This document shows positions 22,715 through 33,236 of a stretch of 48,830 bases of DNA, piece by piece. Under the pieces are notes generated by a model that was not told the DNA's origin, ran no database searches, and saw nothing but the letters and a program-made list of their open reading frames with translations. Every line of letters begins with the position of its first letter. Within the stretch, counting starts at the first letter, position 1. This stretch comes from Corallococcus sp. AB045. Its GTDB lineage: Bacteria > Myxococcota > Myxococcia > Myxococcales > Myxococcaceae. A program made the position numbers and the translations under genes. Where the stretch lies: positions 1-48,830 of the forward strand of contig NZ_RAWN01000061.1 in the NCBI RefSeq assembly GCF_003668895.1, given 5' to 3'.

Positions 22715-25700
22715 TCAAGGGGGCCATCGCCCCGGGAGCAGATCGATGAGACGGCGGCCAAAGGTCTCCGCGTCCACCTCGATGGGTTGTGAATAGTAGC
22801 GCGGGCCCGCGATGTGGTACGTGCCGCCGGAGCCGGGAAGGTTGCCCGCCCACAGCGCCGCGAGCGGATGCGCCTGGCGCCGGAGCGACAGCTGGTAGGC
22901 CTGATAGGCCTGATAGTAGTGCCGGGTCTCGTGGACGATGGTGCCTACCGCTTCGCCCACCGTCAGCCCCTTCGCGATGACCAGCTGGCCCCGCTTCCGG
23001 TACGGCTTCAGCCGTCCGCCCTTGAGGCGCCGGAAGTTCCAGCTCATGTAGCCATAGTCCCCGCGCAGGCGCTTGAAGAGGACCTCCGGCCGCCGCGACT
23101 TCGGGATGCCCAGCGCCTCCATGGTGGCCTCCGCCGCCTCGCGCAGCGCCAGCTCCTTTTCCAGGGGCGGCAGCGCGTTGAAGCGCTTGGGGTCGAGTTC
23201 TGGAATCTGCACGAGCCGGTCGCGGATGTCGCGCAGCTGCGCGCGCTCGAAGGCCTGGAGCTTCCGCGTCTTCCATTGGAGGGACTCGGTGATGTCGAAG
23301 TCTCCCCACCCCAGCACCCGGCCGCCCGCGATCCGATTGCGGACCCGTTTGGTTTCGTCCAGCCCCGTGACGACATCCACCACGTCTTCGACCGAGGCGG
23401 TCTTGACGGGGGGAGGGGGCATGAACTTCTCGTCGATCCGGACGATGGTGCCCGCGACCTCGTTGGGATCCAGGCCGCGCATCATGGGAGGCCGGGGGTC
23501 GAGCTCGATGCCATGCTTCGCGAAGAGCCCCTCGCCGGGCGTGGCGCCGTTCACGATGGCCTCGATCCGGTCGAAGGCCCGGTCCGCGATGTCGACGTTC
23601 CCCGACTTGAGCGCCGTCCTGAGGTCGGCCTTGAGCCGCTTGACGAGCGCCAGGTCCTCCGCGCCCGGTGGCAGATGCTGGGTGAGCAGGTCCAGCTCGC
23701 GCCAGGCGCTCGCCGCCCGCTCGATGCGCTTGGACAGCAGCTGGGGGGGCATCTCCGTCTTGGGCCCGATGCGCACCTCGATTCTCACCCGCCACGCGTC
23801 CAGGGCGTCCCTGACCACCGCGGCGTGCCTCGGGCTCAGCTGTTGGCTGCGCCTCCAGTTGGGGTCGTCCAGCGCAGCGCGAAGCTGCTTCAGGTTGCCG
23901 GGCAGGTTCTCGCCGGTGGAGGTGAACTTGCGGAACCGGGGTTCGTCCTTGCCCCCCTTGACCTCCATGATGTGGACGTCCGCCTTGGTGGGATTGACGC
24001 CATCGTCGAACTGGAAGAGCAGCTCGTCGAAGCCGCTGTCCTGCTTGCCCTTGGGCTTGAAGGTGACGCGCTGGAACTCCTTGCCCGGCCCCAGCCGGTC
24101 GCCCAGGTTCGCCTCGGTCATCCGCAGGGAGGCGACCTTCTCCAGTTCGTTTCCCTCCCTCCGGGCGAATTCGCCGCGCGTCTCCCAGCGGTTGCCCGAG
24201 CGGGCGGAGAGGATCTCCTCGAAGAGGTGCTTCTCGCCGTTCGTGTCGGTCTTCTCGACCAGGCGGTAGTAGCGCCGTTCGTACACGCGGCCCTTCTTGA
24301 CGAACTTCAGCTCCTCCCAGGCTGGTCCCACCTGGGCCAGCGTCTCCCCCGGGTTGAGCTTCTGGGTGGTGCGCTTGAGCAGCTTCCCCGTCAGCGGCGT
24401 GCGCTCCACCAGGCCAATCCTCGGGTCATTCAGGTCGGGACGCTGGAGGGAGAACGGGCCCACGTCTTCGTTCGGGTGCACGTCGAACGTCTGGGGCCAG
24501 TCGCCCTCGGCCAGCGCGCCCTTCGGCACCTCGGGTTCGCCGGTGGGCTTGGGCGCCTCCACCGCTGGCGGCTTCGTCTCCGGAACGACCACCTCCGGTG
24601 GCTTCTCCGCGGGGAACCCCATCTCCAGCTGCCTGGGCGTCGGAACCTCCGGCTCCGGCGGCTTCACCGGCTTCGCCGCATGGAACTCCATCTCCAGCTG
24701 CCGGGCCCCCTCCACCTCCGGCGGCTTTCCCTCCGGAGCCAGCGGAGCCTCGGGCGGCTTCTTCTTGCCGAACAGCCGCGGCGGCTCATTCAGGTACTGA
24801 GGCTTCGAGCGCACGCCCTGGCCGAACTCCGCCATCTCCACCGGCGTGAACGCATCCACCTCCTTCATCCGCTGGCGCAGGTTCGCCAGCGTCTTCTCTC
24901 CCTGCCGGATCCGGCGCGTGGCCTCCGCGGGCTCCAGGGTCACGCCGCGCTTGCCCTCCAGCGACGTGAGCAGCGACTCCTGAGCCGCGATCTCCAGGCG
25001 CAGCTTCTTGCGATAGAGCTCGAACTGCTTCTCGATGGGCAGCTGGTCCCAGTGTCGCAGCGCCGTTTCGTCCAGCGACCTGACCAGCTCGCGCGTCGCC
25101 TTGTCGTGGCGCTGGAGCAGGTGCAGGCCCTCCTCACCCAGGTCGGACAGGTCCGCGCCCGCCTTGATGATGATGGTGGGCTTGCCGCGCCGGAACATCG
25201 TGACGGCCTGCGCGGACTTGCTGCCGGTGAGCGACTCGAAGTCACCCTCGGAGAGCATCTCGATGGGCGTGTTCGCGAACGCTTTGCGCTGCGCGGGCGG
25301 GATGTGCTCGAGCAGCTCCTTGCGCATCGCGCGCTGGAGCTGCTGCCGGTCGAAGTCGCCCGACATCTGCTTGAGCAGGCCGTCGTCGAACTCGCGCAGG
25401 AACTCCTTCATGTCCCCGGCGGGGTTCTCCGCCTTCCACTTCTTGAAGAGGGTCAGCCGCTCCTTGGGCGTGCCCCGGAAGTGGAGCAGGTCCTGGGTTC
25501 GAGGTGGCACGTGGGGCTTGGAGATGCCGCCCAGCGCGCCCAGCCCTCCGGCCATCACCGCGCCCGGCGCCGCCTGCATCGCGGTGCCGGCCAGCACGTT
25601 GAAGAGCGCGTTGCCGCCCTTGTAGTTCTCGTCGTTGAGGACGTTGCCCAGGAACGCGGAGGGCACCGCCTGCGCCAGGCCTTCCGCGCCCTGGGCCAGG

Positions 25701-33236: not shown

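Follow-up and report, generated by a model that had tools for sequence, protein, structure and literature searches.

The 48,830-bp stretch of DNA analyzed here, hereafter the window, is an entire contig of Corallococcus sp. AB045 (NZ_RAWN01000061.1). It carries on its minus strand a gene for a AAA+ ATPase followed by a gene for a giant protein of 2,713 amino acids, which is 100% identical to D7Y21_16885. An earlier note on this DNA had singled out the two as a candidate loader and cargo of an extracellular contractile injection system (eCIS), separated by 32 nt. The GC content of the window is ~70%, so that lists of open reading frames (ORFs) are crowded, and the periodicity of GC content at third codon positions (GC3) picks out the real genes. 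Both the ATPase ORF (GC3 of 0.82) and the giant ORF (0.91) are of the coding type and lie side by side on the minus strand as described, except that the gap between the ATPase stop codon (30888-30890) and the GTG start codon of the giant gene (30856) is 31 nt. A G-rich stretch lies just 5' of this GTG. The ATPase ORF can be read from a TTG at 33329, and every homologue begins at the ATG at 33236 (MDPLW...).

The two genes turn out to be part of a larger unit. Three further genes, encoding proteins of 175, 261 and 504 amino acids, have start and stop codons that touch or overlap (the start of the 504-aa gene overlaps the stop of the 261-aa gene), so the operon reaches past 22715 down to 19879. 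The pair named in the earlier note is therefore real but is extended by two immunity-like genes and a gene with a formylglycine-generating enzyme (FGE)-sulfatase domain. As that note had seen, this minus-strand operon (33236 down to 19879) is convergent with the plus-strand genes from 108 to ~19229, which form the 3' part of an eCIS operon. The setting is thus not that of an unrelated pathway: Tail_P2_I, DUF6519 and gp5-like spike genes are found here, and sheath, gp19, CIS_tube and gp25 genes are found in relatives. DUF6519 is known as an eCIS fiber anchor and marker, eBAP5 (PMC12923769). No usable signal came from promoter and terminator scans covering the convergent junction and the stretch 5' of the ATPase gene.

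The ATPase has one active AAA module (Pfam AAA, E 1e-24, residues 432-556) behind an N-terminal region of ~430 residues, in line with the single module and ~450-aa N-region proposed earlier. The module contains a Walker A motif (GRSGTGKT, 435-442), a pore loop (KYVG, 467-470), a Walker B motif (FFDEAD, with D493/E494), sensor-1 (N536) and arginine fingers (R547/R548). In an alignment of homologues, GxxGxGKT, DE, N536 and RR are invariant and the pore loop reads KY[VI]G; from the intact pore loop and catalytic motifs, the protein is predicted to act as an unfoldase. In the N-region, a winged-helix variant domain is followed by a degenerate D1-like region reaching ~residue 430. Besides the N-region itself, positions 310-372 of its profile match the lid that follows the active module, which fits an N-D1(degenerate)-D2 layout like that of Pvc15, described as N-D1-D2 (PMC11495950). 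A profile comparison bears out the assignment to the Afp15/Pvc15 type: a hidden Markov model of residues 1-420 matches ~50 classical eCIS-locus ATPases over positions ~60-415, as well as the ATPase of an Afp-like Serratia plasmid over positions 58-158. The Serratia protein matches the window ATPase at ~195 bits, whereas the PDB and NCBIfam matches (IteA, PAN, CDC48, FtsH and VCP) reach ~100 bits, cover the AAA module only (residues ~420-640) and fall far under the family cut-offs (93 bits against a cut-off of 510 for IteA). The protein does not cluster with housekeeping AAA proteins; by its N-region homology and eCIS context, it is a Cis15/Pvc15-type eCIS ATPase.

We also identified a C-terminal domain that the earlier note, otherwise right about the AAA module and N-region, had missed. 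The last ~140 residues of the ATPase match Pvc16_N (DUF4255), a domain of tail-terminator type. In the window ATPase, this match lies exactly at the Pfam cut-off of 27 (27 bits, E 4.3e-6); Pvc16_N was matched in 13 of 13 family members, with a best E of 5.5e-9, and the top PDB profile match of the ATPase C-terminus is the Pvc16 N-terminal domain protein 9gts (E 0.038). A tblastn alignment crosses the stop codon of the Serratia ATPase into an in-frame Pvc16 gene 75 nt downstream. Separate DUF4255 ORFs, sought by jackhmmer seeded with the Serratia Pvc16, occur in 54 of 76 classical loci, where they mostly adjoin the ATPase gene, and in 0 of 9 fusion loci, checked within 10 kb (Fisher p 5e-5). 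This is most simply read as a fusion of the cis15 and cis16 genes, in which the ATPase of this lineage would have absorbed the Pvc16_N domain of the neighboring cap gene; the fused domain is cap-like and may cap the tube. No description of a Cis15-Cis16 or ATPase-DUF4255 fusion was found in the literature searched, which is not proof of absence. We consider this cap-loader fusion the most interesting point of the system.

The Serratia locus has a peculiarity of its own. On the plasmid of Serratia sp. B1 (CP123617.1, positions 473-3517; locus L003), the ATPase frame is split (473-1180 and 990-2561), as is the annotation of Pvc16 (ORFs 2637-2873 and 2870-3517), and both cases look like frameshifts or pseudogenes.

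The giant protein opens with a low-complexity region. The Ala/Pro/Gly-rich composition noted earlier for the first ~400 residues extends over residues 1-420, where P, G, A, S and T make up 51-61% and aromatic residues 0-3%, and where no Pfam domain was found. This region is indel-rich and 57-92% identical between strains. Its ratio of nonsynonymous to synonymous substitution rates (dN/dS), calculated against two Corallococcus orthologues, is 0.2-0.26, codons 1-67 included; the region is thus under purifying selection and hence translated. Some annotations start the giant gene later than the GTG at 30856. Downstream, the annexin-like repeats, membrane-insertion segment and HExxH region of the earlier description were all recovered. 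Pfam Annexin matches in three stretches (E 1.2e-21) and PDB annexins IV, V and VI match ~986-1463, annexin being an eCIS-enriched domain (PMC8213781). Hydrophobic windows within ~1593-1654, kept in distant homologues, have Kyte-Doolittle maxima of 3.24 and 1.64 and form a transmembrane (TM)-like hairpin, and the HExxH motif is HETRH at residue 2642. A simple motif scan found no Sec-type N-region (maximal 12-aa hydropathy of 0.90 in the first 100 aa), no Tat signal and no GGxGxD/RTX motif of the kind expected for type I secretion.

The C-terminus of the giant is polymorphic. Among Corallococcus strains, residues 1-2040 are 84-97% identical (somewhat lower at the N-terminus), while residues 2040-2713 drop to 41-47% in several strains, and dN/dS climbs to 0.42-0.55 after residue 2040. 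Distant homologues retain the helical, annexin, TM and C1 core and end in PT-HINT, ADP-ribosyltransferase (ART) or polymorphic toxin type 4 domains. The giant has the build of a polymorphic toxin, with a conserved delivery part and exchangeable C-termini, and is predicted to be toxic.

Its terminal module, C3, weakly matches the metallopeptidase family DUF6782. In the AlphaFold2 (AF2) model, which is confident in the C3 part, the HExxH motif lies on a helix within the alpha/beta fold of a zincin, and C3 is predicted to be a zincin-like toxin module. An exhaustive profile search of representatives showed that two eCIS_core (DUF4157) proteins and one prePAAR/PAAR effector of a type VI secretion system (T6SS) end in the same module; a word-indexed search with the C3 alignment gave two fragments only. 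The 175-aa protein encoded after the giant has homologues encoded immediately downstream of two unrelated toxins that carry C3, one eCIS_core protein and the PAAR effector (E 3e-22 and 9e-13), these being the two of the three C3 proteins whose downstream genes were looked up. The PAAR effector cassette, found on a Logan SRR22405865 contig (L088, 302-2894), consists of a DcrB-family gene, the prePAAR/PAAR effector ending in the C3-like module and the 175-aa homologue. This compact T6SS cassette would provide a small model for the C3/175-aa pair. One zincin-like module, with one candidate immunity family, is found on both eCIS and T6SS effectors.

The preceding module, C2, is common to two other giants, P0152 and P0158, both of which are without C3. 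The 261-aa protein is homologous to the product of a ~250-aa gene directly after each of these C2-terminated giants (E 2e-12 and 2e-8), with a further homologue in locus L002. With two modules that each have a co-varying gene, the operon would encode two toxin modules and two partner genes, with the 175-aa protein as the likely immunity or partner protein for C3 and the 261-aa protein as that for C2. A fold search with C2 gave no match, and its AF2 model has a pLDDT of 60. We considered C2 as a PD-(D/E)xK nuclease in view of a conserved GFDE...EVK motif and an alpha-beta-beta-beta-alpha order in the model, and dropped this candidate because the model is weak (pLDDT 45-60).

The last gene of the operon encodes the 504-aa protein, whose N-domain, conserved after related toxin cassettes in loci L002 and L090, precedes HEAT and FGE-sulfatase domains; a third immunity protein, a chaperone or a modifier are among its possible roles.

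Related loci place the giant in a recurrent cargo slot. In 40 of 84 fetched loci with a related ATPase, an eCIS_core (DUF4157) ORF lies directly downstream of the ATPase gene on the same strand, and 8 of the ORFs adjacent to the ATPase across these loci are at least 1,500 aa long. In a metagenome-assembled genome (MAG) of the Polyangiaceae (L006), the slot holds a 2,077-aa eCIS_core protein followed by an Imm49 gene; the Corallococcus giant sits in the same DUF4157 slot but is devoid of DUF4157. Genes for the fiber, spike, 536-aa, 720-aa and ~480-aa proteins, ATPase and giant follow one another on one strand in L006, and the order is collinear in a Kofleriaceae MAG (L007), so that in Corallococcus a conserved block of 3' eCIS genes has been inverted. 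Elsewhere, a fusion-type ATPase gene in Mesorhizobium (L008) is divergent from an operon that opens with genes for the sheath and baseplate; the ATPase of a Rhodospirillaceae MAG (L085) is divergent from an operon encoding a sheath, two gp19 tubes, CIS_tube and gp25; that of an Acidimicrobiales MAG (L086) lies between two eCIS_core toxins; and Micromonospora (L089) carries the same gene set with a convergent ATPase. The adjacency of ATPase and giant is kept in Corallococcus, L002, L007 and L090, and toxin and ATPase are also neighbors in Micromonospora.

In four of these loci (L006, L007, L086 and L089), spanning Myxococcota and Actinobacteria, the trio of spike, 536-aa and 720-aa genes keeps its order between the fiber and the toxin/ATPase region, with L086 showing the 536-aa and 720-aa homologues only, its flank beginning there. 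This trio could form a spike tip with adaptors for the toxin. Pfam searches gave no matches for the 536-aa and 720-aa proteins, the ORF at 18342-19229 or the first operon gene of L085.

Features of the eCIS-linked locus of a predicted loader and toxin in the Corallococcus sp. AB045 window
Feature	Position	Strand	Basis or remark
AAA+ ATPase, 782 aa, 85.6 kDa	30888-33236	-	Start set by homologues; Pfam PF22977 and AAA
Winged-helix variant domain PF22977	32721-33032	-	Pfam, E 2.8e-8; in nearly all homologues
Active AAA module	31569-31943	-	Pfam, invariant columns
Pvc16_N/DUF4255 (tail-terminator-type) domain, last ~140 aa of ATPase	30891-31319	-	Pfam, PDB profile
Giant polymorphic toxin (toxicity predicted), 2,713 aa, 298 kDa	22715-30856	-	
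Low-complexity Ala/Pro/Gly-rich N-terminus, residues 1-420	29597-30856	-	Composition; candidate loading sequence
Annexin-repeat region, residues ~986-1463	26468-27901	-	Pfam, PDB profiles
Hydrophobic TM-like hairpin, then Gly/Ala-rich region	25877-26080	-	Kyte-Doolittle
C1, last conserved "pre-toxin" region, residues 1850-2040	24737-25309	-	Kept in distant homologues with other C-termini
C2, first variable C-terminal module, residues 2040-2340	23837-24739	-	
C3, terminal module, predicted zincin-like, residues ~2500-2713	22718-23359	-	HETRH at residue 2642, nt 22919-22933
175-aa zinc-ribbon protein	22175-22702	-	Candidate C3 immunity protein
261-aa helical protein	21393-22178	-	Candidate C2 immunity or partner protein
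504-aa protein: N-domain, HEAT, FGE-sulfatase domain	19879-21393	-	Pfam; last gene of the operon
Tail_P2_I + kelch	108-3980	+	Pfam
DUF6519 beta-helix fiber	3977-11590	+	Pfam
gp5-like (gp5/VgrG-type OB) spike	12169-13356	+	Pfam
Conserved unknowns, ~536 aa and ~720 aa	13524-15134 and 15131-17293	+	Same order in related loci
ORF ending at 19229	18342-19229	+	End of the eCIS 3' block

From these observations, we conclude that the locus is probably the effector end of a Corallococcus eCIS, in which a Cis15/Pvc15-type loader with a cap domain is followed by a giant polymorphic toxin and its partner genes. Computed features carry this conclusion: the ATPase belongs to the Cis15/Pvc15 family and is fused to a cap-type domain, its context is that of an eCIS, the giant has a polymorphic architecture and a C3 module in common with DUF4157 and PAAR toxins, and the downstream genes co-vary with the toxin modules. 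The loader-plus-cargo reading of the earlier note is supported, and its cargo reading strengthened, by the polymorphic organization of the giant, by C3 on DUF4157 and PAAR toxins and by DUF4157 proteins in 40 of 84 slots; the novelty it had suggested did not stand, the architecture being a variant of a known one. The system is a large variant of a known toxin-delivery system and not a new kind.

Loading of the giant into the tube by the ATPase would follow what experiments on PVC and AlgoCIS have established (PMC11495950; bioRxiv 10.64898/2026.05.27.728243). In these systems, cargo loading depends on Pvc15 or Alg15, and the cargo is guided into the tube by its disordered N-terminus (PMC9054023, PMC11495950, bioRxiv 10.64898/2026.05.27.728243). 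Here, a hexamer of the ATPase may use its cap-like domain to dock on the distal end of the tube, engage the N-terminus of the toxin, unfold it and thread it into the tube lumen, with the low-complexity N-terminus of the giant serving as the loading sequence. By our volume estimate, one copy of the giant (~360 nm3) fits into a lumen taken as 4 x 100 nm (~1260 nm3). After injection, the annexin repeats and TM hairpin would bind the target membrane, insert into it and carry C2 and C3 across. Bacteria may be the targets, to judge from the immunity-like genes and the T6SS relative; in a predatory myxobacterium, immunity genes point to bacterial prey.

Several points weigh against this interpretation. 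With 298 kDa and strongly hydrophobic helices, the giant would be an unusually large and awkward lumen cargo. Disorder of its N-terminus is read from composition only, the charge-hydropathy plot being uninformative because the high Ala content raises hydropathy. No DUF4157/eCIS_core match was obtained in the giant, even at E 5 on segments, and C3 was rejected as a displaced DUF4157 domain, hhalign aligning 10 columns around HExxH only with a probability of 0.9%. The finished AlgoCIS particle does not include the ATPase (bioRxiv 10.64898/2026.05.27.728243), and docking through a cap domain is thus without precedent. One distant homologue of the giant (30% identity) has no ATPase or eCIS gene within 10 kb. 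Finally, the contig stops within the baseplate operon, and the sheath and tube genes of AB045 lie off it; exact-sequence look-ups with the Cis12-like protein and the ATPase of the window, and with protein P0148, gave no match.

The alternative that survives best, which we nevertheless consider unlikely, is that the giant is a toxin but not luminal cargo: it would be anchored by its TM segments in the membrane of the producer or on the particle surface, or be mounted on the gp5-like spike, with the ATPase serving assembly or capping. Its size and strong TM-like segments would suit such a position, as would the membrane-anchored cytosolic topologies predicted for such annexins by Kodavali et al. 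(PMC3894181), but the long, translated, low-complexity N-terminus fits known loading sequences (bioRxiv 10.64898/2026.05.27.728243). A role of the ATPase in capping would agree with its cap domain and with fusion loci in which no separate cap gene is seen, yet its pore loop and catalytic motifs are intact. Likewise, the gp5-like spike and two conserved unknowns always accompany the toxin region, whereas the slot directly after the ATPase, taken by the giant, is the usual place of DUF4157 cargo.

It is considerably less probable that the toxin cassette is an independent polymorphic island that happens to lie beside an eCIS and is delivered otherwise, by lysis, outer-membrane exchange or an unknown exporter. 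In Corallococcus, pair and eCIS operon lie in inverted orientation, the genes upstream of the ATPase in L002 are housekeeping genes and the distant homologue mentioned above stands alone. However, the adjacency of ATPase and giant is conserved across the loci listed above, and since the ATPase belongs to the eCIS machinery, the pair remains linked to such a system wherever it lies. C3 recurs on DUF4157 eCIS toxins, and the motif scan found no Sec, Tat or RTX signal in the giant. That the ATPase is instead a housekeeping or defense AAA+ protein (CDC48-, PAN-, FtsH- or IteA-like) within an unrelated pathway, as its best named matches (IteA, PAN, CDC48 and VCP, by the AAA module only) might suggest, is hardly credible given how far these matches fall short of the family cut-offs and how little they cover, an N-region and a C-terminal domain that are eCIS-specific, and an eCIS context in every full-length relative examined.

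Returning to the effector end of an eCIS as the preferred reading, we tentatively extend it, as a possibility less likely than not: tail cap and cargo loader may be one polypeptide in this lineage (Myxococcota, Micromonospora, Acidimicrobiales and some Alphaproteobacteria), with a Cis15-Pvc16_N hexamer that would be the sole terminator, sit coaxially on the distal end of the tube, thread a ~300-kDa TM/annexin toxin into the lumen and stay in the finished particle. If true, this would give a physical picture of where and how eCIS cargo enters the tube, and the upper size limit of known cargo would rise. A natural loader-cap fusion suggests that cargo is loaded where the cap binds, at the distal end of the tube, and would offer a stable complex for imaging. 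More broadly, the locus suggests that eCIS-linked effectors can be polymorphic, immunity-protected, ~300 kDa in size, membrane-inserting and free of DUF4157, and toxin searches that rely on DUF4157 as a marker would miss proteins like the giant. Bacterial annexins, whose role has been open since 2014, would gain a concrete context as the membrane-binding part of injected toxins.

Other parts of the window show features of their own. Between 17293 and 19229, the coding signal is unclear: a 463-aa protein of L007 aligns only with 18501-19211 (50% identity), and this alignment begins exactly at the end of a plus-strand ORF (15826-18501), a pattern that points to a frameshift, an assembly error or divergence of the N-terminus. 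Upstream of the ATPase gene, beyond divergent genes for a flavin reductase and an Fe/Mn superoxide dismutase, three minus-strand genes (34586-39369) encode a Ser/Thr kinase with a zf-HC2-like N-terminus and WD40/PD40 repeats, an NHL/SGL beta-propeller and a sigma-70 region-4 protein, all possible regulators; this flank differs in C. coralloides CP034669. A plus-strand gene at 41214-43490 encodes a 758-aa protein matching five major vault protein Pfam families (MVP_shoulder at 4.8e-45, Vault_2, Vault, Vault_3 and Vault_4), a bacterial homologue of the vault shell protein of eukaryotes. Another, at 45208-46887 (+) and distant from the eCIS genes, encodes 559 aa with LysM and a T6SS VgrG3-like C-terminal domain of the peptidoglycan-hydrolase type (E 9e-53).

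The window ATPase resembles Pvc15, Afp15 and Alg15 in being a classical-clade protein whose active D2 follows an N domain and a degenerate D1 (PMC11495950), but differs from all three by its fused Pvc16_N cap-type domain. Conversely, its C-terminus is reminiscent of the Pvc16/Afp16 tail terminators, although these caps are free proteins whereas the ~140-aa domain seen here is fused to the ATPase and matches only at the Pfam threshold (27 bits). An ATPase gene directly upstream of an effector with a long low-complexity N-terminus is also found in PVC (Pnf, Pdp1) and AlgoCIS (Cgo1, Cgo2). Compared with Cgo1 and Cgo2 (~500-1230 aa), the giant is far larger (2,713 aa) and carries TM helices and annexin repeats; its N-terminal region spans ~400 aa, unlike the tens of residues of PVC and AlgoCIS cargo.

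The giant occupies the same slot as the DUF4157 eCIS-associated toxins described by Geller et al. (2021; PMC8213781) and has in common with them long linkers and C-terminal toxin domains, an identical C3 module ending two DUF4157 proteins. In contrast to these toxins, its HExxH lies at the extreme C-terminus, and only the zinc motif is in common with DUF4157. With polymorphic toxins such as the prePAAR/PAAR and Rhs effectors of T6SSs, it has in common exchangeable C-termini and co-varying, immunity-like downstream genes, and with the prePAAR/PAAR protein encoded downstream of a DcrB-family gene the C3 module itself. As in TM-bearing T6SS effectors, its TM segments could act in translocation across the target membrane. 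What sets it apart from T6SS polymorphic toxins is the eCIS and Cis15 context, two tandem modules with two partner genes, and annexin in the delivery region.

Bacterial annexins were catalogued by Kodavali et al. (2014), including the C. coralloides DSM 2259 orthologue of the giant, COCOR_03294 (90% identical), and some of them carry TM regions, toxin domains or DUF4157 (PMC3894181). While that survey obtained no general clue from annexin neighborhoods (PMC3894181), the annexin protein described here is linked to an eCIS and its ATPase, has a polymorphic C-terminus and is followed by immunity-like genes.

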